A stretch of DNA of 64,000 nt from a virus (IMGVR_UViG_3300024319_000003:64001-128000), one strand, 5' to 3'; counted from the first letter of the stretch, positions 3,488 through 34,705 are shown. Notes: a model not told the origin generated them from the letters alone. Numbers and translations are program-made.

Positions 3488-3967
3488 ATGGTAACAACCC
3501 CAGGCTGGACATACAATTCAAAACTCATTACTGACATAAGCGAAATGCCAACAGGCTCTTATGGGTTTATTTACGAAACATTTCATAAACCTTCGGGTAA
3601 AAAGTACTTAGGTAAAAAAGTTCTATTCTTTGAACGTAATAAAAGACTAGGGAAGAGAGCTTTAGAGGCCTTAAGAGAAGAAAGAAAAGCAAAAGGAATT
3701 GGAGGAAGAACACCGTTAAAACAAAAAATAATAACAGAATCAGATTGGAAGACTTATTACGGATCACATAAAGATATTTTAAAGTACGTTAAAGAAGGTT
3801 CCCCAATGGACTTTGAAAGACGTATACTATGTTTTGTACCCAATAAGAAGTTACTTACATACTATGAATGTAAATACCTATTTATAAACGAAGTACTGGA
3901 GAACCAGGATGCATATATTAATGATAATATCCTAGGAAAATTCTACAGAAAAGACTTTACATTATGA
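3488..3967 (+). CDS. GIY-YIG-like nuclease conserved in T4-like phages
   Basis: YGFIY...KKYLGKK, ESDWKTYYGS, a conserved Glu (YYE) and Asn (YINDNI). Confidence 0.6.
   Translation: MVTTPGWTYNSKLITDISEMPTGSYGFIYETFHKPSGKKYLGKKVLFFERNKRLGKRALEALREERKAKGIGGRTPLKQKIITESDWKTYYGSHKDILKYVKEGSPMDFERRILCFVPNKKLLTYYECKYLFINEVLENQDAYINDNILGKFYRKDFTL
3879..3886 (+). promoter_or_regulatory. Putative late promoter TATTTATA at the 3' end of the nuclease gene, ahead of ORF 3964
   Basis: Matches the recurrent intergenic motif. Confidence 0.4.
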
Positions 3968-4380
3968 AATTAAGAGATATTCTACTTAAAGAGGGTAATG
4001 AATCGTGCCCTGCTGCAACTCAAGATTTAATATTAAACACAAAAAATAGAGACTCAGCAATAAAAGCACCCCATATTCAATACGGTCCGTTAAATGTAAA
4101 CGAACCTGGTAATTACTGGAAAGAAATAGCAAAGTACTGGAATACAGAAGAAAAAGCAGCAAAAGGTACTAACTGTAGTAACTGCGTCGCTTTTGATATC
4201 TCCAAGAGGATGGATGAATGTATGCCTGGAGTTACATCTGATGAGGATGGAAGACTAGGTTACTGTTGGATGCATCATTTTAAATGTCATTCCGCAAGAA
4301 GCTGTAGAACTTGGGCTAAAGGAGGTCCAATTGAAAAAGATTCAATATCACAAGAGTGGCAAGAAAGAAATAAAAAGTAA
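3964..4380 (+). CDS. Cys-rich protein with MKL..ILLKE leader and HiPIP-like Cys spacing
   Basis: CSNCVAF...GYC-x12-CRTW. Confidence 0.45.
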   Translation: MKLRDILLKEGNESCPAATQDLILNTKNRDSAIKAPHIQYGPLNVNEPGNYWKEIAKYWNTEEKAAKGTNCSNCVAFDISKRMDECMPGVTSDEDGRLGYCWMHHFKCHSARSCRTWAKGGPIEKDSISQEWQERNKK

Positions 4381-4386
4381 TATAAT

Positions 4387-5556
4387 ATGATTAGATTAAC
4401 TGAAATAATAGGAAAACCATCACTTAAGTACCATATAGATAACAGTCTCTCTTTATATGAGAATGTCTACCGTTATTCTAGCGATAGCTTTATACAATTA
4501 TTTGCTGAAGCAAGAGACGCTTATAGAGACGGTAAAATTCAACTTAACGAAGAAGATTTAAAGTTAATAGAAACAACAGATATAGGGCTATATGGAGTAT
4601 ATGAAGGAATAAAAGTACCATTAGATTTACCTATGTTAGAAGAATCTAAATATGATAAGGAAGAAACTATTCAACAAACAATTGATAGATTAAAAGCGAG
4701 AATAGCCGACCCAAATGATGGAGGGAATGTGCCTTTTTTAACCCAAAAAATAAAAGATTTAGAAAAATCATTAGATGAATCATTTTCTCAAAAAGATTGG
4801 GATGTAAAATGGAAGTTGCCTAAAGACAATTTATTTAATGCAACTAAAACTATAAATGCAACTAATAATAGGTACAAAGCTATACGATCCTTACTAAAGG
4901 CAAAACCTACAGAATTAAAAGCCTTTGATGACACCGATAATCACCCAGCATACGATATGTCTTATGATGAGTTAATGAAATGGTTTAAAAACCTAAAAGA
5001 ACCAGTTAAAGAAGCTAAATCTATACCTGAGTATATTGTAACTAAAGACGATCACCGTAAATCAAAATTCCCTTTCCATAAACTAAGAAACAGTGAATTT
5101 AAAATTAAAATAGCTGGACAAGGTAGAGATCAGGACTACATGATTTTTTGGAAAGAAGGAGACATAGGATACTGGGAATGGGAAGCAGGTAATATGAAAA
5201 GACAGTTAAGAAGCGCTTTGCTGGCCATAGCTAAAAGAAAACTACCTATAAAAGGTCAATTAGATGAAGCAGAATACAAAGGTAAAGATGTACCTCTAAA
5301 TAAACCAAAACGTGGAGGTTCTAAAAAATTCTACGTATACACAAAGAATAAAAAAGGGAATGTTGTAAAAGTATCTTTCGGAGGTACAACAGGTTTAAAT
5401 GTTAAGATAGATGAACCTGGAGCAAGATCATCATTTGCTGCACGTCATAAATGTGCAACTAAAAAAGACAAAACAAAACCAGGATACTGGGCTTGTAATA
5501 TTGGACGTTATTGGAAATCATTAGGTGGAAAAAGAAACTTCTCAGGATATTGGTAG
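4387..5556 (+). CDS. Mosaic hypothetical protein with a basic C-terminal module common in large phages
   Basis: Modules separated by LEE/LDE/VKE/LDE; C-terminal AEYKGKDVPLNKP...SFAARHKC...GYWAC. Confidence 0.5.
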   Translation: MIRLTEIIGKPSLKYHIDNSLSLYENVYRYSSDSFIQLFAEARDAYRDGKIQLNEEDLKLIETTDIGLYGVYEGIKVPLDLPMLEESKYDKEETIQQTIDRLKARIADPNDGGNVPFLTQKIKDLEKSLDESFSQKDWDVKWKLPKDNLFNATKTINATNNRYKAIRSLLKAKPTELKAFDDTDNHPAYDMSYDELMKWFKNLKEPVKEAKSIPEYIVTKDDHRKSKFPFHKLRNSEFKIKIAGQGRDQDYMIFWKEGDIGYWEWEAGNMKRQLRSALLAIAKRKLPIKGQLDEAEYKGKDVPLNKPKRGGSKKFYVYTKNKKGNVVKVSFGGTTGLNVKIDEPGARSSFAARHKCATKKDKTKPGYWACNIGRYWKSLGGKRNFSGYW

Positions 5557-5800
5557 ACCGTACTTAGATGACGGTGATATTAGATTCTTCAATCAAAACA
5601 CAGATGAAGATGAATTTGTTTGGCACAAAGACCGAGAGGATCGGTATGTTGTAGCAATGCATAAAACAGACTGGCAATTTCAATTTGATAATAACCTTCC
5701 CGTTTCTTTAGATGATAACAAGCTATTTATACCAAAGGAAGTGTACCACCGGCTAATAAAAGGCACAGGAGACTTAACCCTTAAAATAGAACGCAAATGA
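5525..5800 (+). CDS. Small cupin-fold protein (start uncertain)
   Basis: WHKDREDR...WQFQFD...FIPKEVYHRLIKG cupin-like motifs; GTG start inside the upstream gene. Confidence 0.55.
   Translation: MEKETSQDIGRPYLDDGDIRFFNQNTDEDEFVWHKDREDRYVVAMHKTDWQFQFDNNLPVSLDDNKLFIPKEVYHRLIKGTGDLTLKIERK
5724..5731 (+). promoter_or_regulatory. Putative late promoter TATTTATA ahead of ORF 5797
   Basis: CTATTTATA about 65 nt upstream of a leader-bearing ORF. Confidence 0.35.
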
Positions 5801-6228
5801 AATTAACTAATATCATATTCGAAGGCTTTAGAGAAGACGCTTCAACTATAAACGGAAAAAAATACTCTGTTAACTGGCTAGGCACAGCTGATACTTTAGA
5901 AGATTTTAAAAAAGCAATAGATAGAATGCCTAGTACTATAAAATCTATAAGTATACCTACTAATACAACCATCTTTAAGACCAGCAAAGATACACAAACA
6001 ATTAAACCGGAAGGTTCTTGGAAAAGTGATGTTATCACAACAGTCGGTAAAGTAGTAAAAGCCCATATGGATAAAGGAGATGATTTAGAAGGTATAAGAA
6101 TTAACTCCTATTACGGAACTGGTCCTAAAGGATCTGACGACCATCCAATTTACATAAGTGTACTTACAAAACAAGCTCGTAAATTTGGAGATGATATGCA
6201 TTCCGGTAAACATGGTTCATTAGATTAA
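5797..6228 (+). CDS. Hypothetical protein with MKLTNIIFE leader
   Basis: ORF coupled by an ATGA overlap; leader motif. Confidence 0.55.
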   Translation: MKLTNIIFEGFREDASTINGKKYSVNWLGTADTLEDFKKAIDRMPSTIKSISIPTNTTIFKTSKDTQTIKPEGSWKSDVITTVGKVVKAHMDKGDDLEGIRINSYYGTGPKGSDDHPIYISVLTKQARKFGDDMHSGKHGSLD

Positions 6229-6233: not shown

Positions 6234-6662
6234 ATGAGACTATCACACGTAATATTAGGAGAGATTCTTTACTACGATCCCGGGTTTGAAAAAGAAGTAG
6301 AGAAAGTAAAAGAACTTGGAGGGAAGTATCTAGGCTCAGGAGATTACGGCTCTGCATATCTTCTAAACGGTAGAGTTTATAAAGTAACAACTGATTCAAT
6401 AGAGTTAGAACATGCACATATACTTAAAGGTAAAAAAACAAATAACTTTGCTTTTATATACGATGTAGAAGAGATTAATGAAAAGTTAGGAATAATTCAA
6501 ATGGAAGTGCTAGGAGAATTTAAAGGAGATATTCCTGAAGAATGGATTGAAGCAACTGAAGCTGAAGCACAAAGGATGGGACTCGACCCAGAAGAACTAG
6601 ATATAAGACCATCAAATGTAATGGTAAATCAAAAAAATAAACTGAAATTAGTTGATATTTAG
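6234..6662 (+). CDS. Minimal protein-kinase-like protein with leader
   Basis: Gly loop LGSGDYG, VYK lysine, hinge QME, catalytic DIRPSNVM, terminal KLVDI at the DFG position. Confidence 0.7.
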   Translation: MRLSHVILGEILYYDPGFEKEVEKVKELGGKYLGSGDYGSAYLLNGRVYKVTTDSIELEHAHILKGKKTNNFAFIYDVEEINEKLGIIQMEVLGEFKGDIPEEWIEATEAEAQRMGLDPEELDIRPSNVMVNQKNKLKLVDI

Positions 6663-8412: not shown

Positions 8413-9249
8413 ATGAAAAAGTTATTATTTTTACTAGTATTATTAACAGGATGCTCTTCTTTACAGGTAAGCACCTTAAATCACGATCCTAACTATAGCA
8501 TACAAGGATCAGATGCAGAAATAATAGTAATAGATAATGAGTTTGAACTTCAACGACTATTAAGAACAGATTTTAATTTTAGATTTGACTTTGCTCAATA
8601 TGCGTTAAGTCAACCCATATCATTTGATTGGAATAATCGTATTCTAGGTAACAGGTACAATAGGTATAATCCATACTACGGGTTAGGTTATAGTCCCTAT
8701 TGGAACAGAACTCAAATGTGGAACGATTGGGCATGGGGTATCACACCTCATAGATGGTCACCATTTGGATACGACAGATGGGGGTATAATAACTACGGTT
8801 GGAATAACTACTACGGATGGCACAATTGGAACTATTATCCTAATTATAATAGAGGATGGAATGCAACATACATGTACGGTAGAAGAAGTGTTAATATAGT
8901 TCCTTCAGGTAGAAGATTAAGACAAACTACAAGAAGAACTCAAACAGTAGACGAGATTGCAGATATAATTAAACTAGAAGTAAGAAACCGAAGAACAAAT
9001 AACACGACAGATGATAAAATTATCAACACTAATACTAGAGGACAGATCCGCACCCAAAGCAATAATAATGGCGGGAGGAGCAGGATCAGGGAAAACGTAC
9101 CTACTCAACCAATTAGGACTAGACAGCCTAGTACAATTCAACCCAGACAAGTACGTGGAGGACAAAGACCACCCGTATTACAACAAACTAGGACCAGCAG
9201 CCAATCAAACGTCCAAAGACGCAATGGCAGCAGCAGAAGAAAAAACTAG
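8413..9249 (+). CDS. Putative lipoprotein with Y/W/N/G-rich middle and R/Q-rich tail
   Basis: Signal peptide II/lipobox MKKLLFLLVLLTGC; aromatic-rich low-complexity region; overlaps the next gene by 239 nt. Confidence 0.6.
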   Translation: MKKLLFLLVLLTGCSSLQVSTLNHDPNYSIQGSDAEIIVIDNEFELQRLLRTDFNFRFDFAQYALSQPISFDWNNRILGNRYNRYNPYYGLGYSPYWNRTQMWNDWAWGITPHRWSPFGYDRWGYNNYGWNNYYGWHNWNYYPNYNRGWNATYMYGRRSVNIVPSGRRLRQTTRRTQTVDEIADIIKLEVRNRRTNNTTDDKIINTNTRGQIRTQSNNNGGRSRIRENVPTQPIRTRQPSTIQPRQVRGGQRPPVLQQTRTSSQSNVQRRNGSSRRKN

Positions 9250-9952
9250 CTTTGTTTGGGATACTACTGCATCCGGAGCAGGCTTCCAAAAAAATCTAGA
9301 TAAATTACTTGCAACAGGCTACCAGGTCTATATGGTTATGGTGTATGCTCACCCTATGATTTCTTACGTTTCTAACTTTATGGCTAGGGAAAGAAATATT
9401 CCTGGCGATTCTGTATTTGCTACCTGGAGAAATGTGTATACTAAAATAGAAGACTTTAACAGACAGTTAAAAGGTAACTTATCTATCTTTGTAAGTGATA
9501 GAGGCGGTAAATATAAAAAAGAAGTTGAAGGATTTGATAAAGCTGCTAAAAGTGGCTTAAGTGGAGTAAAAGATTATTTAGAGAAATTTAATCAAGATAA
9601 TAATGTCGGCGGCTCTTCCTTCTTTGTACCAGTAGAGATGACACCTGAAGAAGAGCAACAATTTATAAAAGATGTTGGTAGTATAGATTGGGATAAAGAA
9701 AATAGATCAGAAGACAAAGCAATTAAAACTGCATTTCTAAAAGCTTACAGAAAGAACGGAGCAGGCCCAGGACAGGATAAGCTTAAAGCAGCAGTTCAAA
9801 AGTATAGAGACAGCAATATAAAAAGAAAAGGAAAAGCAGATGAAGTTCTAGATAATATTGTAGATATGATATACAATCCAACATTTCAAGAAAAATTAAA
9901 TCACTCCTCAGTAGGAGAAATAGACTCTAAAGTACAATCATTTTTAGCATGA
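9011..9952 (+). CDS. Zeta-toxin/AAA_33-like P-loop kinase with MIKLSTLILE leader
   Basis: Walker A AGGAGSGKT, NPD, FVWDTT, GYQVYMVMV...RER. Confidence 0.7.
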   Translation: MIKLSTLILEDRSAPKAIIMAGGAGSGKTYLLNQLGLDSLVQFNPDKYVEDKDHPYYNKLGPAANQTSKDAMAAAEEKTSFVWDTTASGAGFQKNLDKLLATGYQVYMVMVYAHPMISYVSNFMARERNIPGDSVFATWRNVYTKIEDFNRQLKGNLSIFVSDRGGKYKKEVEGFDKAAKSGLSGVKDYLEKFNQDNNVGGSSFFVPVEMTPEEEQQFIKDVGSIDWDKENRSEDKAIKTAFLKAYRKNGAGPGQDKLKAAVQKYRDSNIKRKGKADEVLDNIVDMIYNPTFQEKLNHSSVGEIDSKVQSFLA

Positions 9953-11593: not shown

Positions 11594-12184
11594 ATGAATA
11601 CAAGTATAATAGATTTATTAGATGCACACCCACCAACAGTAGCAGAAAAAACATCAAAGTATAAGATATATTGCGATATGGACGGAGTATTAACAGACTT
11701 CGAAAAAAGATTCTTTGATAAAGTAAATGAGGTTGGTCCTGATCACTACCCACTTAAGGACATAAAAAAAGTAATTAAGCCAAAAGATTTTGAGGCAATA
11801 TTCGGCATGACTGAATTCTGGAAATTTATAGACCAAATAGTTGGTGTATCATTCTGGGTAGGAATGGACTGGATGCCAAGAGGAAAAGAACTCTGGAGCT
11901 TTATATCTAAATACAATCCATCGCTTCTTACTTCACCATCAAGAGATAACACATCCAGATTAGGTAAAAACCTCTGGGTTAAGAATCAACTTACTCCAAA
12001 ACCTAAAGTAATATTTGCATACTCAGCATATAAACAAAACTATGCTAACCCTAATGCTATACTCATTGATGATAAAAAGTCAAACATAGAAGAGTGGAGA
12101 GCAAAAGGCGGTATAGCGTTTAGAGTTAAAGGAGGAGACATAACAGAAGCACTAAACGGTCTTAAAGAGTTAGGATATGAGTAA
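11594..12184 (+). CDS. HAD-family 5'(3')-deoxyribonucleotidase-like protein
   Basis: IYCDMDGVLTDF (motif I), LTSP (II), GK (III), LIDD (IV). Confidence 0.8.
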   Translation: MNTSIIDLLDAHPPTVAEKTSKYKIYCDMDGVLTDFEKRFFDKVNEVGPDHYPLKDIKKVIKPKDFEAIFGMTEFWKFIDQIVGVSFWVGMDWMPRGKELWSFISKYNPSLLTSPSRDNTSRLGKNLWVKNQLTPKPKVIFAYSAYKQNYANPNAILIDDKKSNIEEWRAKGGIAFRVKGGDITEALNGLKELGYE

Positions 12185-12795: not shown

Positions 12796-13152
12796 ATGAC
12801 ACAAAAAGATTTACTTGAATCAGTACTTAAAGAATTAGTTCACATAAAAAAGCATATGCCTAACGGTGAACTAAAAATTATGCTGAAAGACGTTAAAGGA
12901 CTGAAAGATGATATGTCGGATCTCAAGTATACATTACTAAACCCAGAAGACGGTACTATAGTTAAAACCAATCAAAACTCAGCTTTCCGTAAAAGGATGG
13001 AAGATAATGAAAAAGATTTTTTCAATAAACTTCAAGAAATACAAGATTTAAAAAAATGGAAAGATAGTGTACAGAAAGCTCTTTGGATTATATTTACAGT
13101 TCTCGCTGGTGTAGTAATTAAACTATTATCAGAAGTAATACGTATACAGTAA
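12796..13152 (+). CDS. Coiled-coil protein with a single C-terminal transmembrane helix
   Basis: ALWIIFTVLAGVVIKLL; a lysis role is possible but unproven. Confidence 0.5.
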   Translation: MTQKDLLESVLKELVHIKKHMPNGELKIMLKDVKGLKDDMSDLKYTLLNPEDGTIVKTNQNSAFRKRMEDNEKDFFNKLQEIQDLKKWKDSVQKALWIIFTVLAGVVIKLLSEVIRIQ

Positions 13153-13832
13153 TGAAACAAAGTACAGTAAGAGATATAGTTAAAGAGTCATTAAGAGATT
13201 GGTTTAAAAAAGAAAAATGGGTAAGAATATCATCTTCTGGTAACATAGCAGGAGACTGTGGTACTTCAAAGAATAAAAAAAATCCGGATAGGTGCTTGCC
13301 GAAATCAAAAGCACAGAGTTTAACAAAAGGCCAAAGAGCCGCTACTGCAGCAAAGAAAAAGAAAGCAGGAAGTAAAGGAAAGACAGTCGTGAAGAATACA
13401 AAAAAAGCAAAGGTAACAAAAGAAGATTTAACAAACCTAGTAGTAGGGATGGTAAACGAAATAAAAAACCCTCAAAACTTAATTAGCTTTGGATACGATT
13501 TAGACGCTATTGAGGACGTTGTTAACCACTTAAGAAGTAAATACAAACCTGGCGTAGATTATGAACTCCATATAGGAAGAGGAGACGATTTACCTAACGC
13601 TGTAACTATTTTGAATCCAAAACTTCATAGTGATTACGATTTGAACGATATGTTAAATTATGCACAAAGCGATGAAGATAGATACGATGCTTATACTGAC
13701 GGTAATTTAAACGAGAAGAAAGACGATAGATGTACTAGATTAGCAAAACAGAAATACGACACATGGCCATCAGCTTATGCCTCAGGAGCAGTGGTAAGAT
13801 GTAGACGAGGGGATATATGGAAAGAGAAATAA
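13152..13832 (+). CDS. Basic mosaic hypothetical protein with leader
   Basis: Leader MKQSTVRDIVKE; LRDWFKKEKWV module and WPSAYASGAVVRCR module separated by VNE/LNE. Confidence 0.55.
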   Translation: MKQSTVRDIVKESLRDWFKKEKWVRISSSGNIAGDCGTSKNKKNPDRCLPKSKAQSLTKGQRAATAAKKKKAGSKGKTVVKNTKKAKVTKEDLTNLVVGMVNEIKNPQNLISFGYDLDAIEDVVNHLRSKYKPGVDYELHIGRGDDLPNAVTILNPKLHSDYDLNDMLNYAQSDEDRYDAYTDGNLNEKKDDRCTRLAKQKYDTWPSAYASGAVVRCRRGDIWKEK

Positions 13833-14048: not shown

Positions 14049-14249
14049 ATGAATAGGAACGATTTAAAAGATGTAATACTTGAGGTGCTATATGAAGGTC
14101 CACACGATCCGGTAAAACCGGGTATATTAAAAAAGAGGATTGGAAAACTATCTTGTTCAAAAGTACGTAAAGAAAAAAGTAAATTAAAAGATAAAGGAAC
14201 ACATTTTGCAAAAGCATTACAGAGGTACTTAAACTACCACTGTCAGTAA
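14049..14249 (+). CDS. Small basic protein with leader
   Basis: MNRNDLKDVILEVLYE leader. Confidence 0.5.
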   Translation: MNRNDLKDVILEVLYEGPHDPVKPGILKKRIGKLSCSKVRKEKSKLKDKGTHFAKALQRYLNYHCQ

Positions 14250-19008: not shown

Positions 19009-19371
19009 ATGGACAATTTTGACTTAAGAAAATTTTTAGCTGAAAATAAAAAAACAGTTATTGAAAACCAAGATCATAGTGATGAAGAAGCGTTAGATCT
19101 AGTACCGGACCTTGATAAAGGAGGTAAAAATTATAGCGATAACGGGTACGAATCTTACAAACTGCAAGTTAAAGCAGGCTACCAGATCCCTGAACCTTAC
19201 TCACTGAAGAACTATAAAAATGCTGCCGAGTTAAATAAAGAACAAGCTAAAGACGAAGGACATAGAATAGGTAAATACGTTGTTGAACTTGAAGGTCAAG
19301 AATTAGAACAATTTGTTAACGACTGGATGAAAGCTTGGAATGAAGAAATCTCAGGAGGAGAAAAAGCATAG
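19009..19371 (+). CDS. Hypothetical protein with MDNFDLRKFLAE leader
   Basis: A-rich initiation region; leader ending FLAE. Confidence 0.55.
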   Translation: MDNFDLRKFLAENKKTVIENQDHSDEEALDLVPDLDKGGKNYSDNGYESYKLQVKAGYQIPEPYSLKNYKNAAELNKEQAKDEGHRIGKYVVELEGQELEQFVNDWMKAWNEEISGGEKA

Positions 19372-19390: not shown

Positions 19391-20791
19391 ATGAATCTTA
19401 TAGATAAAGTTTTATTAGAATGGTCCTATAAGACCAAAAAAGGGTATCCTGACATTAACAGTCAAGAGGATATGGATTTGTTTGAATCTATATTCGGTTT
19501 TAACCTTAATGAAACACCTCTTACACCAGCTGAATTAGATAAAGTAAATTCTAATACAAAAGAAAATAGAATTGATATACTAATAAGAAAAATTAAGAAC
19601 AAAGAACCTCTAGCTATAGATGATTCAGAAGATACTTTTTTAGTATATGATCCAAGAGGTGAAAAAGTAAGTGAATTAGAAAAATGGGATGTATCTAAAA
19701 AGGCAGTGACTCTTTTTAACAGAGAAGGAAATTCTATTACAACATCTAAATTAGCAAAATCAGCAGATTTTGGAGGTGGAGCAGGATCTGGAGCAGGATC
19801 AGCACAAACAGATATACAAGAATCAAGTATGTGTGCAGTTTTAGCTTTATACCAGAAACAAGGCAAATTAGAAGAGAAAGATCTTACCTCAGAAAATATA
19901 AAAAGTATTTCCAAAGATATAGAGACTACATCAAGCGTAGAGGAAATAGTAGATTATATTACTAATTCTCCCGGCTGGGCTTCTACATTTGTTAACACAG
20001 CTTCTTTATTATCTGGCTATTTAGATAAAGGGTACGAATTCCATCGAGGTTCATCATTTGTAGATTCTATATACGAAGTGTGGAAAAAAATAAAGAAAAA
20101 AAATAAATGGAGTATCAAAGATGATAAATGGAATCCATCGGATATTTGGGCAGTAAAACCAACAGGAAAAAATATTAAATTAGATAGTGAAACATTAGAA
20201 GAATATAACAACCAACTGTTAGATTTATTCAATAGTAGAACTTTAATAGGTATTTCGCTAAAGAAACTTGGTAAATCTCCAACTGTAAAAACAGTAAATA
20301 AAGAAAGAGTTTCAGAAATAGAAGTTTTAGATAGTATAATTTCTTCAGGCGGTTCTAAAGATGCTTATGTAAACACTAAATCAGGAAAAATATTACAACT
20401 TAGAACAACCGGTGGTAATTCGTTTCAAGGAGAATTGAAAGGTAAAACTGCCGCTCAAGGAAAAATAGGTGGAGGTGTACTCAAAACGTTTTTAGATAAA
20501 CAAGGATTAGGACCTATACCAACTCAGAAAGAATCTGCTAAGTTAGCTATAGAGTACACACCCTCATTTGTTAACGAATTACTCGAATTATGTAATGAAT
20601 ACTTCAGTATAACTGAAGAAGAATTAAATTCAAAAACTACTGATTGGTTAAATTCAAAGTACCAAGCATTAAAAGTAGCAAAGGTTTTAAAAACAGGTAG
20701 CAAGGATAAAGTAGAAGCAGCATTAACAGACATAGTAAATTATGCTGGTTCAAGAAGCTCTATTTCTGCTGTGTACCTAAAAGTAATGTAG
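19391..20791 (+). CDS. Putative PD-(D/E)XK-like endonuclease with leader
   Basis: QES...KWNPSDIW...IGISLKK restriction-enzyme-like spacing; N-terminal MNLIDKVLLE...FNLNE. Confidence 0.5.
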   Translation: MNLIDKVLLEWSYKTKKGYPDINSQEDMDLFESIFGFNLNETPLTPAELDKVNSNTKENRIDILIRKIKNKEPLAIDDSEDTFLVYDPRGEKVSELEKWDVSKKAVTLFNREGNSITTSKLAKSADFGGGAGSGAGSAQTDIQESSMCAVLALYQKQGKLEEKDLTSENIKSISKDIETTSSVEEIVDYITNSPGWASTFVNTASLLSGYLDKGYEFHRGSSFVDSIYEVWKKIKKKNKWSIKDDKWNPSDIWAVKPTGKNIKLDSETLEEYNNQLLDLFNSRTLIGISLKKLGKSPTVKTVNKERVSEIEVLDSIISSGGSKDAYVNTKSGKILQLRTTGGNSFQGELKGKTAAQGKIGGGVLKTFLDKQGLGPIPTQKESAKLAIEYTPSFVNELLELCNEYFSITEEELNSKTTDWLNSKYQALKVAKVLKTGSKDKVEAALTDIVNYAGSRSSISAVYLKVM

Positions 20792-24326: not shown

Positions 24327-25181
24327 ATGAAGATAAAACATTCAAAGTTTAAAAATACCGGCCTGATTTACGAACTATTAGTAAAGCAGATAGCAGCAGA
24401 CACTTTGTCAAAAAGTGAATCACCAGCTTTAGGTATACTCAAAGAGTTTTTTGCAGGTAGCTCTACACTAGCCAAAGAATTGAAACTTTATGAGTATATA
24501 CTTAAAAATACTAATTTAGTTGAAGTAAAAGCTGAAACAGTTTTATCAACTATCACTGAAATTTCTAGAAAGCTAAATCAAAAGGCACTAAAAGAACAGA
24601 AGTATAGATTAATCTCAGAAGTTAAGAAACATTATAATATTGAAGAGTTCTTCGGTATACAAGTTAGAGATTATAAAGCACTAGCAGCTATGTACTGTTT
24701 ATTAGAAGCACAAAATTCTAGCACATTAGTTGCACCAGAATTTTTAATTAATAATAAACTTACTATTCTAGAGCACCTAACTTCTTCTAAAGTAGATAAA
24801 GATGCAGTAAAAGATACACTTATTGAAGAGTATGCTAAATACGATAAGGATTTAAGACTACTTACATATAAAATTCTTTTAGAGAAATTTAATTCCAACT
24901 ATAAAGATTTACTACCAGAACAGAAATACATACTTAAAGAGTTTATAACCTCAGTTGACTCAACTACTAGACTTAGAAACATAGTTAATGAAGAGATAGT
25001 AAAAATTAAAGAGCTTATTAGTGAACTATCTTCTAAAGTAAAGGACGAAGTAGTAAGGATAAAATTAGAGGAAGTAGTTAAATCAATAAAGACTTTAACT
25101 AAGACAGAAAAAATTACAGATAACCACCTTGTTAATCTTATGCAATATTATGATTTGGTAAATGAGATGAAATCAGTATGA
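24327..25181 (+). CDS. Helical head-module protein of unknown function
   Basis: Lies between portal and prohead protease; L/K/E-rich. Confidence 0.55.
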   Translation: MKIKHSKFKNTGLIYELLVKQIAADTLSKSESPALGILKEFFAGSSTLAKELKLYEYILKNTNLVEVKAETVLSTITEISRKLNQKALKEQKYRLISEVKKHYNIEEFFGIQVRDYKALAAMYCLLEAQNSSTLVAPEFLINNKLTILEHLTSSKVDKDAVKDTLIEEYAKYDKDLRLLTYKILLEKFNSNYKDLLPEQKYILKEFITSVDSTTRLRNIVNEEIVKIKELISELSSKVKDEVVRIKLEEVVKSIKTLTKTEKITDNHLVNLMQYYDLVNEMKSV

Positions 25182-25408
25182 AAAAAAGCACAATAAGAAA
25201 AGCTATAAAAGAAGTAATAGAAGAACTTAGCACCTCAGCAGCAGTAGGAGGGTATCAAACTCCATTTGCCTTTAGTAAAAAGAAAGGTGATAATAGAGCA
25301 ACAAAGCAAGCTGAAAAGCTAGGTTTTAAAAAAGTTAAAAATAAAAAAAGACCTTATAACACTAAAATGTTTGATTACTTAGATGAAAACAATACAAGAA
25401 AAATATAA
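25178..25408 (+). CDS. Small basic protein with leader
   Basis: MKKSTIRKAIKEVIEE followed by ...GGYQTPFAF. Confidence 0.5.
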   Translation: MKKSTIRKAIKEVIEELSTSAAVGGYQTPFAFSKKKGDNRATKQAEKLGFKKVKNKKRPYNTKMFDYLDENNTRKI

Positions 25409-27836
25409 CGCAGTTGTAGAGGGTACATTCTCTAAACAACAATTCCTTAAAGATGCTAAGAGAGAGCTATCTCAATTCCTATCTCCCTTTAACGGATTCC
25501 CAGACACAGTATCAATCCTTAAAAGTAAAGGGATTCTTTTTGAAGCTAAAAAAGAAGCTTCATTAGAGTACGAATGCCCAGTATCTCAATACTCGGTAGA
25601 GGACCTAACAAGAGGGGTAGACTTTGAATTAGAAAAAGCTGGAGTAGATTCGGCTGCTACTGTAACCAAAGAGGATAAAGATAAAGCAGAGAAAATTGCA
25701 ATCAAAAACCTTGAAAAAGATAGAATGCACTACCTTAACATACTAGCAGGAGAATCAGCAAAAGTTGATAAGCACGATAAAATGGTAGAACCAACTGATA
25801 AGAATAAAGTAGATACTTTTAACGGCATGAAAAAAGCTGATTTAAAAGAAAACTATACCAAAGAAAAGTTACTGAAAAAATTAGGTGACGCAGACGATGC
25901 TCGTATTCAAACCGGTAACGGAAAAGAATATATAATTTATAATCCTAATTCTAATAATGATGATAATGCTGCAATGTGGCATGACGATACTGTATTTGCT
26001 GTTGACCTAGATGGACAAGAAGAAGAAATAGATTATAGAGATATAGGATTAGTAATGGTAGAAGATATCAAAGAAAGTAATCAAGAAGAATCTATTGCAA
26101 ATTTTATTATAAAGTACTACTCTAACCCCAACACAGGAAAAAGTCTAATAGATGATGATATTATAGGTGACTTTTTCGCAACACACCCTGAATCAAGAGA
26201 TCAAGAACCTCAAGATGCATTAGATAATTTTCAAGAGTTCTTATCAGTAAATTACGAAATGCCTGGGGACTACATGCAAGAAGCAGAAGATTTAACACTA
26301 GAGCCTGAAGATACTGACAATCCAGATGAAACTTTAATAGCTATAGGTAGAGGATATTTAGAGGGTTTTAATAGACCTCATTCTCTAACTAACGGCGATT
26401 TAGAAATTTTAGGGAAAAAAGTAGTAGATAACCTATATAAAGGAGATCTTGAAGCAGCCAAAACACAATTTGTAGCAGAAGCTATGACTGATGATGAAAT
26501 GAAAAAGATTGCTAAGTACGGTAAAGATACAGATATGAAAGCAATTGATAAAATTTATAAATTAGGAGACAAATTTTCAACAGACTTTGACTACGACGGA
26601 ATGCTAAAAGCAGGGCTTAAACTTAAAATAAGTACTCCTTTAGATAAAATGCAAAAACTTTATGACTCTTTTGAAGATGTAAATTACCATAGAGAAAACG
26701 GACATTTAGGTAATGCTATAGACTACATACAAGATGGAGATAAAAAAGGAGCTTTAGATCACTTAAAGATGTTTAGACAAGCAGTACGTAAAACTTTAGG
26801 AGAAATGGACGAAGGAGCTGATAAGGTAAGAAAAGTAGTAGCAGAGGATAGTGATATACAGGAAAGTCGAGGAGCATTTGATTTATGCGTTCAAGGAATT
26901 CAAGATATCGCCACAGATGGAGATGTTAGCGAGAAAGATGCTGCTATGGAAATGATGATAGCAATTGCTGATAAGTATGATTTTAATCTAGCAGGATTAG
27001 AGTCTCAACTGTTCCATGGAGATGATTCAATTAACGAAGGTAGAAGAAGAAAGACTAAAGGAGGTAAAGTAGTAACTGAAAACGACTACGAAACTGGAGG
27101 ATATGTTGAGAGTATGGGACCTTTATTTGATAAAGGAGTTAATATGCTAATCAAGGCTTGGGAAGAATGGAAAATGGGTCCAATGACAGAACCAGGAATG
27201 GTAGAGTTTGCTAAAAAAGATGTATTGACATACCTAGAAACTCAATTTATGGTAGAAAATCTTGAAGAAGCTAAAGGTAAAGATCACGATGGAGATGGAG
27301 ATGTAGATGGAGATGATTATATGGCTAGTAAAGATGCTGCTATTAAAAAAGCAATGGGCAAGGAGAAGGTAGTTAAAGAAAATATTAAATCTATAATTGT
27401 TAAGGTATTAGAAGAAGGGGTAGTAAATGAAGCTGCAACAAATGCATTAGCAGATTTCTCTGAAACATACGGAGGATATGAAGGAATGAAACAATCAATT
27501 ATAAATCTTCAAGATGTTGTAACAGATATTGAAGCATACTACGATAAAACAAGAAGTAAGATTCAGAAAGTATATGACACTTTAGGTGATATTAGGAATG
27601 AAGAAGGTCTAAAAGTAGGAGGATTTTTAGCTCCTGCAATAGAGCAAGCATTTAATAAGGACTTAAGACCAGCAATTAAAGGTGGATTCACAAAAGGACT
27701 AACACAACCTAAAGTAAAAATGATATCACAGAAAGATATTGAAACACAAAATCCTCTAGGAGAAGTAGAAAAAGAAACGGTATACTCAAGACCTACAGTT
27801 AATGGAACTTTACAAGAAAATAAAAAAAGAAAATAA
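25383..27836 (+). CDS. Large acidic mosaic protein, putative prohead core/internal polyprotein
   Basis: MKTIQE start; many hydrophobic-x-E sites; DHDGDGDVDGDDY loop; located in the head module. Confidence 0.5.
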   Translation: MKTIQEKYNAVVEGTFSKQQFLKDAKRELSQFLSPFNGFPDTVSILKSKGILFEAKKEASLEYECPVSQYSVEDLTRGVDFELEKAGVDSAATVTKEDKDKAEKIAIKNLEKDRMHYLNILAGESAKVDKHDKMVEPTDKNKVDTFNGMKKADLKENYTKEKLLKKLGDADDARIQTGNGKEYIIYNPNSNNDDNAAMWHDDTVFAVDLDGQEEEIDYRDIGLVMVEDIKESNQEESIANFIIKYYSNPNTGKSLIDDDIIGDFFATHPESRDQEPQDALDNFQEFLSVNYEMPGDYMQEAEDLTLEPEDTDNPDETLIAIGRGYLEGFNRPHSLTNGDLEILGKKVVDNLYKGDLEAAKTQFVAEAMTDDEMKKIAKYGKDTDMKAIDKIYKLGDKFSTDFDYDGMLKAGLKLKISTPLDKMQKLYDSFEDVNYHRENGHLGNAIDYIQDGDKKGALDHLKMFRQAVRKTLGEMDEGADKVRKVVAEDSDIQESRGAFDLCVQGIQDIATDGDVSEKDAAMEMMIAIADKYDFNLAGLESQLFHGDDSINEGRRRKTKGGKVVTENDYETGGYVESMGPLFDKGVNMLIKAWEEWKMGPMTEPGMVEFAKKDVLTYLETQFMVENLEEAKGKDHDGDGDVDGDDYMASKDAAIKKAMGKEKVVKENIKSIIVKVLEEGVVNEAATNALADFSETYGGYEGMKQSIINLQDVVTDIEAYYDKTRSKIQKVYDTLGDIRNEEGLKVGGFLAPAIEQAFNKDLRPAIKGGFTKGLTQPKVKMISQKDIETQNPLGEVEKETVYSRPTVNGTLQENKKRK

Positions 27837-28462
27837 TGAAAGATAACTTTGACATATATAGTTGGAATCAAAAAAGACGTTTAACAGAAGCACGCAAGCT
27901 AGAAGAAGCACAAGCAGTTAACCTTCCTACAATACCCGACTCAGTACTTAATAACTTTGCAAACCAGATAAAAAACCCACAAACAATGGCATCTGCAGTC
28001 ATTGCTCTGGTAAATAAGTTAGCGGAAAAAGAAAACGAAAATATTCTTAAAAATCCTAAAATAGCAAGAGCAATTGACTTACTAAAAGATATTGATCCTG
28101 CAGATGGAGAAGTTGAAGAAGCTTTAAAAATGACAGCATCAACAGAAACTCTTAGAAAAATAATATTTAAATTATTAGATGACGGACAGATCCAACCAGA
28201 AACAGCTGATGATATACTAAATGCTATTTCAAACTCACCATCAGATAATATATATGAAGCTAGAGTTGATAGAGAAGTAGCGGAACGTATCGAAGGTTTA
28301 TTAAACCAACAATTAAAAGCTAAATTCTTAAACTATTTTCAAGAACTTTACACTGATTTAGTACAGGACGATTTATTTTACGCAGAAGATGTTGTTAACC
28401 ATTTAAATAACGAGATGCATAAAATCATAAAAGTAGCATCTAAAGATGATTTAAATCTTTAA
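27836..28462 (+). CDS. Hypothetical head-module protein with leader
   Basis: MKDNFD...RLTE leader, similar to ORF 19009. Confidence 0.5.
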   Translation: MKDNFDIYSWNQKRRLTEARKLEEAQAVNLPTIPDSVLNNFANQIKNPQTMASAVIALVNKLAEKENENILKNPKIARAIDLLKDIDPADGEVEEALKMTASTETLRKIIFKLLDDGQIQPETADDILNAISNSPSDNIYEARVDREVAERIEGLLNQQLKAKFLNYFQELYTDLVQDDLFYAEDVVNHLNNEMHKIIKVASKDDLNL

Positions 28463-28482: not shown

Positions 28483-29061
28483 ATGGCACAATTACTTATA
28501 GAAGTTACATCATTTAATCCTATTCTAAGAGAATCCAAAGAAAGACCTGGAGTATACGAAGTAGAAGGAGTTATGCAAAGAGCAACTGCAAAGAATCAAA
28601 ATGGTAGAACTTATAGTAAAGCTATTTTAGAAAGAGAAACTAAGAAGTATATCTCTGAATTTGTTTCAAACGGTAATGCATTTGGAGAATTAGATCACCC
28701 TGAGTCTCCCATTGTCTCTCTAAAGAACGCTTCACACATAGTAAAAGACTTATGGTGGAAGGGAAACGACCTTATGGGACGTGTGGAACTACTAAATACA
28801 CCTTCAGGTAATATTGTAAAAGAAATAATTAAAGCAGGACACACTATAGGGATATCATCTAGAGGAACAGGCTCAGTACAACAAACAAATGAAGGAGCAT
28901 TAGAAGTGCAAGATGATTTTGAATTGGTATGTTGGGATTTTGTATCTAATCCTTCTACTCATGGAGCATTTATGAATCCTATTTCACTTAATGAAGGAAA
29001 AGGTAAGGCATCTAAGTTTATTAAGCTGGATGCAATCTTAAACGATATACTAAGAGCTTAA
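28483..29061 (+). CDS. gp21: Prohead core protease (T4 gp21-like)
   Basis: NQNGRTY, GELDHP (His), GISSRG (Ser), DFVSNPS. Confidence 0.92.
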   Translation: MAQLLIEVTSFNPILRESKERPGVYEVEGVMQRATAKNQNGRTYSKAILERETKKYISEFVSNGNAFGELDHPESPIVSLKNASHIVKDLWWKGNDLMGRVELLNTPSGNIVKEIIKAGHTIGISSRGTGSVQQTNEGALEVQDDFELVCWDFVSNPSTHGAFMNPISLNEGKGKASKFIKLDAILNDILRA

Positions 29062-29606
29062 TGAAGTTAGCAAGTATTATTCTAGAAGCAGAAGGTAATG
29101 CTGAACCAGGAATGGGGCAAATGGCAGACCAAATAGCAAAAGCAATAGAAAAAGAGCTAAGACCGCATAAAGGTGAATTAGACGGAGATACAAACGAAGT
29201 CGCTGGAGTAGTAGGTATAATAGGATATATACTTCTATCTAACACAGTAGCACATATGCTTGCTAAGATTGCTAAATCGCTATCTAAGAAATATAATAAA
29301 CCCGGAATACTCAAAAGTGCTGAATGGTGGGAAGACTTCACACATAAGAACGAAGCAGCGTTTATGGCACCTATCAAACGTATAGTGGGCATGTTTACTA
29401 AAGATGAAAAGAAGAAATCAGCAGCAACTAAAATAGTATACGGTATCTTAATTTTCTTAATGGCAGGTCAAGCAGGAGGAGGAGCTCTACAAGCTCTTAA
29501 AACTACTAGATGGGCAGCAGCAGCAGGTCTTTCCGCAAAAGCATTAATTAAAGGCGTGGAAGTAACCTCTCTACTTAAACAGGCAGCATCAGATCTAGTA
29601 TCTTAA
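29061..29606 (+). CDS. Hydrophobic protein with MKLASIILE leader
   Basis: Two to three G/A-rich hydrophobic segments. Confidence 0.5.
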   Translation: MKLASIILEAEGNAEPGMGQMADQIAKAIEKELRPHKGELDGDTNEVAGVVGIIGYILLSNTVAHMLAKIAKSLSKKYNKPGILKSAEWWEDFTHKNEAAFMAPIKRIVGMFTKDEKKKSAATKIVYGILIFLMAGQAGGGALQALKTTRWAAAAGLSAKALIKGVEVTSLLKQAASDLVS

Positions 29607-30859: not shown

Positions 30860-32464
30860 ATGGAAATTAATTCTCTTTTAGAAAGCGCTAACGGATACAA
30901 AGCACTCGCTGCTGATGCATCACGTTTAGCTGACAAATGGGCTGCTTCTGGATTGCTAGAAGGATTGAACTCTAAAGATTCGGCAAACATGTCGATGATG
31001 TTAGAAAATCAAGCTAAGCAAATCGTAGCAGAACAATCATCTACAGGTACAGGTGCAATCGGTGCAACTGCTTCAGGTAATGAGCAGTGGGCTGGAGTAG
31101 CTTTACCTTTAGTACGTAAGGTATTCGCTCAAATCTCTGCAAAAGACTTTGTATCAGTTCAACCAATGAACTTACCTTCAGGTCTAGTATTTTACTTAGA
31201 CTTTAAATACGGTTCTGCTGATTCAATCGGTAGAGCAGACGGCGACAACATGCACGGTAACGTGACTGAAGCTGGAACAAAAATGGCAAAAGATGTTGAT
31301 GCTGCAGACGGACTTTACGGAGCAGGTCAATTCGGATACTCTATTAAAGCGTTAACTGGAGCAGCAGACGCTCAAGTAACTGGTTCAGCTACTGAAGCAC
31401 TTATCGATTACGATGATGCTAAAGATCCAGCGAACTACAGAAAAGTAACAGTTGCAGCAGCAACTATACCAGGATTTGACGCAGAAGGTGTAAGAGCATT
31501 TAGACTTTTATCTTCTTCAGTAGATATTACACTTAACCCAGAACTTACTAAGTTTGACGGAACAGATGTAACATTCGTAGTAGAAGATGCACCAGCTGGA
31601 AAAACTTTAGTTTCTCCATTCTCTGCATCAGTTAACTATCACGCACAACCAGCAGACAATTCAAGAGGTGACTTTGAAGATTCATCAGCACCTGCAGCAG
31701 GAGCAGTTTCTTCATTAGCTATTCCAGAAATCAACGTAGAGTTGAAATCTGAAGCAGTAGTTGCTAAAACTAGAAAATTGAAAGCACAATGGACTCCAGA
31801 GTTTGCTCAGGATCTTAATGCTTATCATTCAATTGACGCTGAGGCAGAACTTACTTCTTTATTGAGTGAGTACATCTCAATGGAAATTGATCTAGAGATC
31901 TTAGACATGTTGATCAGTGGTGCAGCTACTACTGAAAGATGGTCTGCACAAAACAACAGAGTATGGAACGGTACTGCTTGGGCAGATGCTGGATCAGACT
32001 TCTACAATACTCAAGGACAATGGTTCCAAACTTTAGGAACTAAAATCCAAAAAGTATCTAACAAGATTCACCAAAAAACATTAAGAGGTGGTGCAAACTT
32101 CCTAGTATGTTCTCCAACAGTAGCTACAATCTTAGAATCAATTCCAGGATATGCTGCTAATACAGATGGTGACTCAGCAGAATTTGCTTTCGGAGTACAG
32201 AAAGTAGGTCAATTAAACGGTAGATTTAAGGTATACAAAAACCCTTATATGACTGAAAACACTATCCTTTGTGGATTTAGAGGTGGTCAGTTCTTAGAAA
32301 GCGGTGCTGTATATGCTCCTTATGTACCATTAATCATGACTCCTCTAGTATACGATCCAGTATCTTTCACACCAAGAAAAGGTATCATGACTCGTTACGC
32401 GAAGAAAATGATCAGACCAGAATTCTACGGTAAAGTACACGTTAGTGGATTAGCTACTATCTAG
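30860..32464 (+). CDS. gp23: Major capsid protein (T4 gp23-like)
   Basis: VSVQPMNLPSGLVFYL, KTRKLKAQWTPEFAQDL, YAPYVPL, PRKGIMTRYA. Confidence 0.95.
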   Translation: MEINSLLESANGYKALAADASRLADKWAASGLLEGLNSKDSANMSMMLENQAKQIVAEQSSTGTGAIGATASGNEQWAGVALPLVRKVFAQISAKDFVSVQPMNLPSGLVFYLDFKYGSADSIGRADGDNMHGNVTEAGTKMAKDVDAADGLYGAGQFGYSIKALTGAADAQVTGSATEALIDYDDAKDPANYRKVTVAAATIPGFDAEGVRAFRLLSSSVDITLNPELTKFDGTDVTFVVEDAPAGKTLVSPFSASVNYHAQPADNSRGDFEDSSAPAAGAVSSLAIPEINVELKSEAVVAKTRKLKAQWTPEFAQDLNAYHSIDAEAELTSLLSEYISMEIDLEILDMLISGAATTERWSAQNNRVWNGTAWADAGSDFYNTQGQWFQTLGTKIQKVSNKIHQKTLRGGANFLVCSPTVATILESIPGYAANTDGDSAEFAFGVQKVGQLNGRFKVYKNPYMTENTILCGFRGGQFLESGAVYAPYVPLIMTPLVYDPVSFTPRKGIMTRYAKKMIRPEFYGKVHVSGLATI

Positions 32465-33237: not shown

Positions 33238-33241
33238 TCAC

Positions 33242-33249
33242 TATTTATA
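33242..33249 (+). promoter_or_regulatory. Putative late promoter TATTTATA
   Basis: Intergenic, upstream of the neck gene. Confidence 0.6.
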
Positions 33250-33263
33250 TATAAACTGTAACT

Positions 33264-34406
33264 ATGAGTAATATATCTATATGGGCAGGAACATCTACAT
33301 TTGGTTCTGGCCAAACACCATTCGGATTTTACGACAGTGACTCGGACTTTAGTACTGATGCTGATAAAGTAGCAAGATTTTGTGCTCAAAGACTAGGGTA
33401 CCCGTTAATGGATGTTGAACTACAATCAGGATCTTTTTACGCTTGCTTTGAAGAAGCTGTAACTGTCTACGGGAATGAAGTTTTTCAATTTAAAATTAGA
33501 GAAAATTACTTAAACTTAGAAGGGGCTTCTACCGGTAGTTCATTAAATAATCAATTAGTTGAACCGACTATAACTCGTTTTGTAACCATAGCTAAGAACT
33601 ACGGTACAGAAGCAGGAGTAGGAGGAAATGTAACTAAATATTCTGGCTCAGTAGAATTAACCGGCTCAGTACAAGAATACGATTTAGATTTATGGGCGTC
33701 TGAAAAAGGAATAACAGATGGAATAGAAATTAGAAGAGTATTTTATGAAGCACCACCAGCAATAACAAGGTACTTTGACCCTTATGCAGGAACAGGGACA
33801 GGAATACAGTCACTAATGGACTCATTTGGATTTGGACAATTCAGCCCAGGTATAAACTTTATGTTAATGCCAGCATCATACGACGTTATGAAGATGCAAG
33901 CAATAGAATTTAATGATCAAATTAGAAGATCTACATTTACATTTGAATTAGTGAATAACAAGTTAAAACTATTCCCTATACCTCAAACAGCTGGAAAGCT
34001 ATTCTTTGAGTACTATAAAAATACAGATAAAGAAGCAGTTAACTTTAATAACTCAGTTAACCTTATAACAACTGTATCAGAAGTACCATATGAAAACCCA
34101 ACATACACACATATTAATAGTGTGGGTAGACAGTGGATATTCCAATACACATTAGCCTTAGCTAAAGAATTGCTAGGATACATAAGAGGAAAATACGCAA
34201 CGGTACCAGTACCTGGTGCTGAAGCAACACTTAATCAAGCAGATTTGTTAACAGATGCAAGAAACGAAAAAGACAAACTACTTCTTAATTTAAGAGAAAT
34301 GTTAGAAGAAGCATCAAGAGGTTCTCAAATGGAAGCACAAGCTCAAGAAGCAGACTTCCTAAGACAGACATTATCTCAAGTTCCACTAACAATTCATGTA
34401 GGATAA
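33264..34406 (+). CDS. Neck/head-tail adaptor protein (gp13-like)
   Basis: RLGYPLMDVEL, WIFQYTLALAKELLG.IRGKY...LN motifs typical of gp13-like proteins. Confidence 0.75.
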   Translation: MSNISIWAGTSTFGSGQTPFGFYDSDSDFSTDADKVARFCAQRLGYPLMDVELQSGSFYACFEEAVTVYGNEVFQFKIRENYLNLEGASTGSSLNNQLVEPTITRFVTIAKNYGTEAGVGGNVTKYSGSVELTGSVQEYDLDLWASEKGITDGIEIRRVFYEAPPAITRYFDPYAGTGTGIQSLMDSFGFGQFSPGINFMLMPASYDVMKMQAIEFNDQIRRSTFTFELVNNKLKLFPIPQTAGKLFFEYYKNTDKEAVNFNNSVNLITTVSEVPYENPTYTHINSVGRQWIFQYTLALAKELLGYIRGKYATVPVPGAEATLNQADLLTDARNEKDKLLLNLREMLEEASRGSQMEAQAQEADFLRQTLSQVPLTIHVG

Positions 34407-34705
34407 TGAAACTATTAAGGATATTAGAGCAGATACAGTTCAAAACCTACGAAGGGATGATAAGAGTCCTTTACGAAGACGGTGAAAGTGAAGACTTAGC
34501 TGAACTTCTAAGAGCACTCCCAGGAGTAACAACAGTAACAAATGCAGGTCAATCTACAGAAATGAGCACAATGACGTTTAAAGTAAAAGTTATTACTCAA
34601 AAAGAAGGAATTGAAGCATTTCAATTGTTTAAAAGCAATGCTATGGAGAAGTATCCTAATATAATTAAAATTGAAACAGCGAAAGAAACAATACAAGAGA
34701 AGTAA
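34406..34705 (+). CDS. Small protein with MKLLRILE leader
   Basis: LRALPGVTTV; possible small alpha/beta fold. Confidence 0.5.
   Translation: MKLLRILEQIQFKTYEGMIRVLYEDGESEDLAELLRALPGVTTVTNAGQSTEMSTMTFKVKVITQKEGIEAFQLFKSNAMEKYPNIIKIETAKETIQEK

Follow-up and report, generated by a model that had tools for sequence, protein, structure and literature searches.

The window and its T4-type head module

We analysed a DNA stretch of 64,000 nucleotides from a virus (IMGVR_UViG_3300024319_000003:64001-128000, hereafter the window), in which many otherwise unrelated proteins have in common a short N-terminal tag of about 10 residues. This tag, called the leader here, is a candidate capsid-targeting sequence (CTS). 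The window represents bases 64001-128000 of a complete phage genome of 167.7 kb, which has a G+C content of 34%, carries every gene on one strand and has no Shine-Dalgarno sites at its starts. The phage is a distant marine T4-like myovirus. Its closest isolate is Flavobacterium phage vB_FspM_immuto (phage immuto; 69% identity of the capsid protein), Microcystis phage Mel-JY01 and Rhodothermus phage RM378 are further off, and relatives of its prohead protease were found in 435 IMG/VR contigs. The features are listed in Table 1, where open reading frames (ORFs) are named by their first coordinate in the window.

The head genes have a T4-like layout, with an acidic 344-residue protein ahead of the capsid gene and small ORFs between the portal and the protease. 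An earlier note on this DNA had seen a gp21-like protease here, and 28483 is indeed a Peptidase_S77 member, 40% identical to T4 gp21. In the pairwise alignment the columns of His85 and Ser140, which we take to be the catalytic residues of T4 gp21, are kept. Just ahead of its core domain lies a conserved phi-L-R/K-E-S; T4 gp21 has P-M-L-E-S at a similarly short distance ahead of the aligned core. The N-terminus of the capsid protein is alignable to that of T4 gp23; at the site of the T4 gp23 cut it has an invariant I-V-A-E, after which comes a Gly/Ser/Thr stretch that varies. The N-terminus of the scaffold-like protein contains F-K-Q-A-I-A-E-A, which is near-invariant across 63 relatives.

Table 1. 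Leader-bearing ORFs, head genes and upstream motifs of the window (aa, amino acids; pI, isoelectric point)
Feature	Coordinates	Strand	Remarks
138-aa Cys-rich ORF	3964..4380	+	leader MKLRDILLKE, one extra residue ahead of Glu
389-aa ORF	4387..5556	+	leader-like hydrophobic pattern without Glu; doubtful
143-aa ORF	5797..6228	+	canonical leader; in hyperplastic slot
142-aa mini protein-kinase-like ORF	6234..6662	+	with leader
313-aa P-loop kinase, zeta-toxin/polynucleotide-kinase type	9011..9952	+	leader MIKLSTLILE; best-documented candidate carrier
5'-nucleotidase-like ORF	11594..12184	+	N-terminal extension; Asp where most relatives have Glu
118-aa ORF	12796..13152	+	loose-pattern match; probably no leader
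226-aa basic ORF	13152..13832	+	leader-like N-terminus; weaker; matches phrog_23735
66-aa basic ORF	14049..14249	+	pI 9.9; MKKSEL..I.E-type leader, kept in homologues
822-aa acidic ORF	16511..18979	+	leader MHKLEKLILE
120-aa acidic ORF	19009..19371	+	second leader type, NFDL-R-K-F-L-A-E-N-K
466-aa ORF	19391..20791	+	MNLIDKVLLE start; doubtful; matches phrog_1462
Terminase	20794	+	
Portal, gp20 type	22408	+	Portal_T4 1.7e-69
76-aa basic ORF	25178..25408	+	pI 10.1; with leader; between portal and protease, the place of T4 gp67
817-aa acidic head-module ORF	25383..27836	+	conserved E-K-Y-x-A-V-x-E-G N-terminus; weaker
208-aa acidic head-module ORF	27836..28462	+	long NFD-type N-terminus; weaker
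Prohead protease, T4 gp21 family	28483..29061	+	phrog_207 3e-54; Peptidase_S77 6.5e-36
181-aa ORF directly 3' of protease	29061..29606	+	canonical leader; two hydrophobic segments (hydropathy)
Acidic scaffold-like protein, 344 aa	29790..30824	+	pI 4.1; precedes capsid gene; assigned by composition
Major capsid protein, gp23 family	30860..32464	+	Pfam Gp23 1e-78; propeptide-like N-terminus
99-aa ORF	34406..34705	+	MKL..I-L-E N-terminus; weaker
Motif A copies	3879 (3879..3886), 5724, 8373, 12757, 14274, 22372, 24302, 29695, 33242	+	
Motif B copies	3473, 6672, 11554		

The leader is in excess over chance

All the 15 N-termini that the earlier note had listed as leaders were located at their coordinates, and two patterns were used for counting. 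The strict pattern, ^M.{0,1}[KR]L.{2,3}[ILV][ILF].{0,1}E (M-K/R-L-x-x-I-I-x-E; MKL..IILE type), is found at the start of 7 of the 53 ORFs of the window. In 2000 composition-keeping shuffles of residues 2-16 of each ORF it occurred 0.04 times on average and twice at most, and it was absent from all 310 internal-Met windows. The class pattern, phi-x-x-phi-phi-x-E inside the first 16 residues, is matched by 12 of the 201 ORFs of the genome against 2.8 expected. These matches are clustered, with 9 of the 34 ORFs in 3964-34705 against 3 of the 167 elsewhere in the genome (Fisher 6e-6). Outside the window, leaders were seen on the genome ORFs at 27805, 36293 and 50612; these, together with 11594 and the N-termini of the scaffold-like and capsid proteins, were not in the earlier list. 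The leader exists in at least two coexisting types, MKL..IILE / MKKS.L..II.E and NFDL.KFL.ENK.

The conserved Leu, Ile and Glu are encoded by differing codons in different copies of the leader and the upstream DNA is unrelated; therefore, selection acts on the peptide and the conservation is at the protein level. A signal at the level of DNA was ruled out on the same grounds. A signal-peptide reading was also rejected: the true lipoprotein and signal N-termini of this genome have long uncharged hydrophobic runs, and the leader is short and charged.

One could argue that these N-termini have no common function and reflect AT-rich starts and the ordinary first helices of unrelated folds. A G+C content of 34% without Shine-Dalgarno sites would favour Lys, Ile, Leu and Glu codons at the starts, and the N-termini of 19391, 34406 and 13152 run into their domains. 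However, the comparison with shuffled N-termini, which the earlier note had named as a possible refutation, gave 7 observed against 0.04 with composition kept, and this excess, the scarcity of class-pattern matches outside the region, as well as the behaviour of the leader on the kinase 9011 described below (kept on deeply diverged members while the next four residues vary freely, and detached in the model), also speak against such an origin, which we regard as very improbable.

Grading of the candidate carrier ORFs

Each ORF was graded as a firm, weaker or doubtful carrier on the basis of the N-termini of its orthologues. By this measure, the earlier count of about 15 leader ORFs stands in part, for about 10 of them well. 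Nine are firm predicted carriers (3964, 5797, 6234, 9011, 16511, 29061, 14049, 25178 and 19009), four are weaker candidates (34406, 13152, 27836 and 25383), and two, 4387 and 19391, are doubtful. All firm members have their Glu between residues 8 and 13. The absence of the motif from the primase, the terminase and PhoH was as the earlier note had described; the exonuclease starts with N-I-L-E, and the spacing misfits the pattern.

Among the firm candidates, 3964 keeps its leader across 19 homologues, with Gly for Glu in one. It has eight invariant Cys and no Pfam family match; neither the earlier label 'Fe-S protein' nor that of 'nuclease' found support from any tool. The homologues of 6234 have the leader Glu at position 9 or 10, and their alignment shows an invariant Gly-rich loop, Lys50, Glu57, D-x-x-x-x-N loop and terminal Asp, along with a weak match of 6234 to phrog_15752. 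This ORF, which is conserved in 50 relatives, stops directly after the Asp equivalent to that of the DFG motif and is consequently without a C-lobe. In about 30 homologues of 16511, L-I-L-E is kept after N-terminal parts of varying length (MHKL, MKRADLKK and MKKSKLQK types); searches in Pfam, PHROGs, PDB sequences and the ESM Atlas gave no match for this protein. The leader of 29061 is present in 45 of 48 homologues and is followed by a linker that is variable after the Glu. Within the head module, 25178 was found in the loci of 62 of 80 relatives, with M-K-K/R-S-x-phi-x-x-phi-phi-K/R-E conserved.

Of the weaker candidates, 25383 is present in all the relatives' loci, the Glu being shifted by one residue in some of them. 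The Glu of 13152 falls within a conserved block, its N-terminal extension varies, and some forms have no leader. Among 41 homologues of 34406, the Glu is not fixed in position and the motif extends into the conserved domain. Pfam and PHROGs gave no function for 25383, 14312, 19009, 14049 and 25178.

The doubtful ORF 4387 has 79 homologues with the consensus M-I-K/R-L-x-x-I-I-G-x-P-S-L, where an invariant Gly occupies the place of the Glu; its C-terminal part matches phrog_7595. The N-terminus of 19391 runs on, in all its homologues, into a conserved Trp-containing block (L-E-W-S-Y-K-T-K-K-G-Y-P-D), and no function was obtained for it from Pfam, PHROGs, PDB sequence search or the ESM Atlas. Most of the 45 homologues of the nucleotidase 11594 have S-I-V-D/E-L-L-E-A-Y-P, followed by a linker and then by the DMDG motif. 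ORF 12796 was rejected as a carrier, as it matches phrog_937 (XhlA-type 'hemolysin') across residues 3-112.

The leader on the 9011 kinase

Both proteins that had been called kinases in the earlier note retain this assignment, 6234 by its protein-kinase-like motifs and 9011 by a Pfam Zeta_toxin match (4e-12) and a predicted body fold resembling polynucleotide kinases, zeta/PezT toxins and AvrRxo1. Homologues of 9011 comprised 1079 database matches at E <= 1e-5 plus one representative per 50%-identity cluster, and the presence of the leader was checked among the matches listed. In 92 unique kinase N-termini, K-L and I-L-E are almost invariant (entropy near zero) and the Glu is invariant. Numbered from this Glu (position 0), positions -6 and -3 are occupied by conserved hydrophobic residues, position -2 is I or L throughout, and entropy is high at the two polar positions, -5 and -4. 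Variability across the whole protein is highest at the four residues that follow the Glu, after which comes the invariant P-loop strand. The leader is still found on representatives with as little as ~25-30% identity, and about ten representatives are without it and start directly at the P-loop strand. A tblastn search with 9011 against 50,697 cultured phage records gave no match.

An AlphaFold2 model of the kinase, built from a 34-sequence alignment, has a mean predicted local distance difference test (pLDDT) value of 93, and residues 1-11 are at ~49. In this model, residues 1-11 form a short helix that is not packed on the body; the model shows the leader as a detached helix of low confidence.

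The genes next to the kinase have features of their own. A lipoprotein-like ORF (8413-9249) with a low-complexity tail of Arg, Gln, Thr and Asn shares 239 nt with the kinase ORF, read in a different frame; an overlap of ~230 nt is kept in two relatives (L159 and L160), and two database proteins (P0122 and P0132) resemble fusions that span both frames. Real dual coding, a frameshift site and an artefact of ORF calling are all possible explanations of this overlap. On the other side, the kinase is followed by an NMNAT/cytidylyltransferase-like gene (9949-11517 in the window; L095:9683-10864 and L256:245-2164 in relatives), for which the window copy gave no Pfam match at 1e-3. A database protein of 1547 aa (P0185) is a kinase fused with an NMNAT/cytidylyltransferase-like part. 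The adjacency and the fusion suggest a joint pathway, possibly NAD-related.

The leader in relatives

We compared the surroundings of the protease, of 4387 and of 13152 in relatives, 240 loci in all. Orthologues retain the leader; the Glu is almost invariant and the residues after it are hypervariable. Asp in place of the Glu was found in none of ~140 unique leader-bearing sequences. The strict leader occurs on at least 17 non-homologous protein bodies in these loci. The slot between the homologues of 5525 and 6234 holds varied, non-homologous cassettes of 105-139 aa, nearly all leader-bearing, in 30 distinct architectures. This hyperplastic slot, also present in L096-L175, resembles the variable internal-protein loci of T-even phages.

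Bodies and leaders are also found in different combinations. The 29061-like body occurs with either of two leader forms, the one in other phages being of the MKRSQLVKLIKEE type. The second leader type, NFDL-K/R-K-F-L-x-E-N-K, is spread over unrelated bodies both here and in phage immuto, a cultured phage with the same leader types, where 18 class-pattern matches were counted, 10 of them just upstream of the head module. In one relative (L095), the kinase orthologue is leaderless within the same primase-exonuclease-kinase-NMNAT-like synteny, a leader-like extension is present on the NMNAT-like gene and a canonical leader on the 5'-nucleotidase. The leader is also found on the NMNAT-like gene of Mel-JY01, on P0185, and on the nucleotidase of most relatives. 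As judged from these alignments, the leader moves between the enzymes of one cluster and, as the earlier note had proposed, is portable, considering the unrelated bodies and the leaderless orthologues in addition.

Two upstream motifs split the genome

Two motifs are enriched ahead of the starts, A (TATTTATW, enriched ~7-fold upstream of starts) and B (TYKTATATT). Motif A precedes the portal, scaffold and capsid, neck, tail-fibre, sheath and tube genes, and it lies 85 nt upstream of 3964 and 73 nt upstream of 5797. Motif B precedes a GIY-YIG gene, the primase, the nucleotidase, a GroES-like gene and replication genes. Each ORF was assigned to the nearest upstream motif (background 125 A, 76 B). 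All the 14 firm leader ORFs belong to A units and none to B units (p = 0.001). The three B units of the window hold the leaderless 3488, the primase and the exonuclease, plus the Asp-variant nucleotidase 11594. In the relatives, leader ORFs were 224 A to 8 B and other ORFs 1279 A to 119 B, a comparison with a soft p-value because the sequences are related.

The short B units are interleaved with the A units in the window, and the two motifs split the genome into two gene classes. Elsewhere in the genome, at 2928-4866 (59-61 kb ahead of the window), two adjacent ORFs have N-termini that are GroES-like and GroEL-like by appearance.

These data bear on the possibility that the leader is an uncleaved docking helix for another assembly, either a nucleotide/NAD multi-enzyme complex or another phage-made scaffold. 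Microcompartment encapsulation peptides consist of an N-terminal amphipathic helix and a variable linker, which is also the form of the leader, and enzymes are found among the carriers: a P-loop kinase and a 5'-nucleotidase, joined in relatives by the NMNAT-like enzymes from one gene cluster. However, the same leader is present on the head-module proteins 25178 and 29061, the leader ORFs have the upstream motif of the structural genes, and an invariant Glu that is never Asp suits the P1 site of a protease better than the surface of a helix. Moreover, no match to the bacterial microcompartment (BMC) shell protein (PF00936) was found in the complete genome, control genomes being positive, so that the capsid is the only shell encoded. 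We consider a docking helix unlikely.

The leader compared with the T4 sequences

The capsid-targeting reading draws on T4, the CTS of whose internal proteins IPII and IPIII was reportedly described by Mullaney and Black in 1996. In the T4 record, IPII and IPIII start with MKTYQEFIAE, as the earlier note had stated, Alt with MELITELFDE, gp24 with MAKINELLRE and gp22 with MLKEQLIAE. The first 10 residues of IPIII suffice for incorporation into the head (PMC9026906, PMC9958956). Mutagenesis of IPIII assigned residues 4 and 7 to targeting and residues 8 and 10 to processing, and Asp at residue 10 blocks processing (PMC9026906). Short N-terminal peptides are removed by the protease gp21 from Alt, gp24 and the internal proteins; from gp23 it cuts 65 residues (PMC9026906, PMC9958956). 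The conserved positions -6, -3, -2 and 0 of the leader have the spacing of IPIII residues 4, 7, 8 and 10.

When the class pattern was run on the annotated starts of 92.6 kb of T4, it returned the known substrates ipII, ipIII, gp24 and alt, as well as gp2, which is internal to the head, and gp61.1, whose first residues are nearly those of IPI. This hypothetical protein of 54 aa (T4 record 18966-19130, minus strand) has the N-terminus MKTFKEFIKE, against MKTFKEFTST in IPI, and judging from this likeness it may be an unrecognised CTS-bearing protein. A position-specific scoring matrix (PSSM) made from the strict leaders of the clade and run on the same 92.6 kb placed gp24 second among 884 ATG-started candidates.

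Discussion

Taken together, we think that the leader is probably a capsid-targeting propeptide of the T4 type, one with a larger set of cargo. This reading is based on its excess over chance, its clustering and its conservation at the protein level; on a spacing that matches the residues mapped in T4 IPIII, together with the fit of IPII, IPIII, Alt and gp24 to the class pattern; on a Glu that is never Asp, as T4 processing needs (PMC9026906); on its portability and its detachment in the AlphaFold2 model; on the T4-type head module, in which 25178 and 29061 themselves carry it; and on the position of the firm carriers behind motif A of the structural genes, with no other shell encoded.

The leader-bearing proteins are, by analogy with T4, probably loaded into the phage head, and the steps could be as follows. 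The leader would form a short N-terminal amphipathic helix, whose hydrophobic face (-6 and -3) would bind the scaffolding core during prohead assembly, so that any protein carrying it would become enclosed. The gp21-family protease 28483 would then cut behind the Glu, guided by the aliphatic residue at -2, and so release the mature protein inside the head. We infer that the carriers would be kept there and would enter the host together with the DNA. As cargo we would expect the small basic proteins 14049 and 25178, similar to the T4 internal proteins, the kinase-like 9011 and 6234, the hydrophobic 29061 and the large acidic 16511.

The leader could also target the prohead on proteins that are parts of the core, to be degraded and expelled like T4 gp22, gp67 and gp68, rather than injected as effectors. 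In T4, most of the core mass is degraded, while Alt and the internal proteins remain in the head (PMC9958956), and 25178, 25383, 27836 and 29061 lie in the head module without an enzyme signature. On the other hand, cargo is a better fit than scaffold both for folded enzymes, such as the kinase 9011, and for an accessory slot that varies, and we hold degradation to be quite unlikely as the fate of the carriers.

Several observations weigh against the capsid-targeting reading. Four of the 10 class-pattern matches in T4 are probably unrelated genes; the loose pattern alone is about half predictive, and therefore the weight of the argument is on the strict pattern and the conservation data. The clade PSSM did not rank IPII, IPIII and Alt on the T4 sequence, which have aromatic residues where the clade has aliphatic ones, and therefore the likeness to T4 is claimed for spacing and residue class and not for sequence. 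In 16511, 19391, 34406 and 13152 conservation extends beyond the Glu, so that the helix may belong to the fold of these proteins. As BLASTP found no similarity of the scaffold-like protein 29790 to T4 gp22, the binding partner of the tag is an assumption. Motif A is a presumed late promoter, with the genes that it precedes as the sole basis. Several carriers are metabolic enzymes (the kinase, the nucleotidase and, in relatives, the NMNAT-like protein) for which a need of packaging is not obvious. Finally, we found no virion proteomics in the literature for phage immuto, Mel-JY01 or other far T4-like phages.

What the carriers might do in the host is a matter of speculation, a role in host takeover or anti-defence among the possibilities. 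A more specific idea, which we offer tentatively and rate well below an even chance, is that this abundant marine and freshwater clade of T4-like phages with Bacteroidota-type hosts injects pre-made enzymes, marked as load by a leader of 9-12 residues, that would act on NAD or nucleotide pools, or on host proteins, before phage genes are expressed. This set would include the tag-swapping zeta-toxin-type P-loop kinase, the NMNAT-like enzymes, the 5'-nucleotidase and the mini protein kinase.

We did not find the leader described in the literature on the immuto-like clade or other far T4-like phages. As a kind, the idea has precedents, since it has been published that the T-even internal proteins are diverse and share only the CTS, which is possibly a general loading route of T4-like phages (PMC3012670, PMC9026906). 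The present case has a larger, partly enzymatic list of candidate cargo and a clean comparative signature. If the leader acts as in T4, the packaged and injected proteome of many uncultured phages would be predictable from their genomes alone. The T4 targeting code, worked out by mutagenesis in one coliphage, would be ancient, with its spacing conserved across very distant T4-like lineages, and the leader would be a natural tag for loading proteins into the heads of phages of Bacteroidota hosts. Among the first proteins to consider for counter-defence or takeover functions would then be the variable cassettes that carry the leader, in parallel to T4 IPI, which blocks a restriction enzyme.

Among known systems, the cargo-loading peptides of BMCs and encapsulins likewise direct diverse enzymes into a shell by a short amphipathic helix and a variable linker. 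However, they are uncleaved and have no requirement for Glu, and their shell proteins are unrelated or only distantly related. The phiKZ-like giant phages (SPN3US and 201phi2-1) have long N-terminal propeptides on head and ejection proteins (PMC5694885, PMC10052503). There too, a gp21-related prohead protease cuts after Glu, and the propeptides are proposed to direct numerous internal proteins into the head. These propeptides, in contrast to the leader, are mostly longer than 100 residues, lack one short common motif and have a small residue at P3.

The closest likeness is to the T4 CTS, also an N-terminal tag of about 10 residues on otherwise unrelated proteins, in which hydrophobic residues at a spacing of three precede an aliphatic residue, one other residue and Glu. 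Both systems have a gp21-family protease with a gp20/gp23 head module, and in both the carriers are encoded by accessory genes that differ from one relative to another; the T4 carrier Alt is also an enzyme. The differences are in residues and in scale. The clade uses Leu or Ile where T4 has Tyr or Phe, with a bulky residue before the Glu in place of Ala, and it has at least two leader types. Its putative carriers include P-loop and protein-kinase-like enzymes and proteins of more than 800 aa; they number ~10-15 per genome, compared with ~5 in T4, and represent at least 17 body families in the clade.

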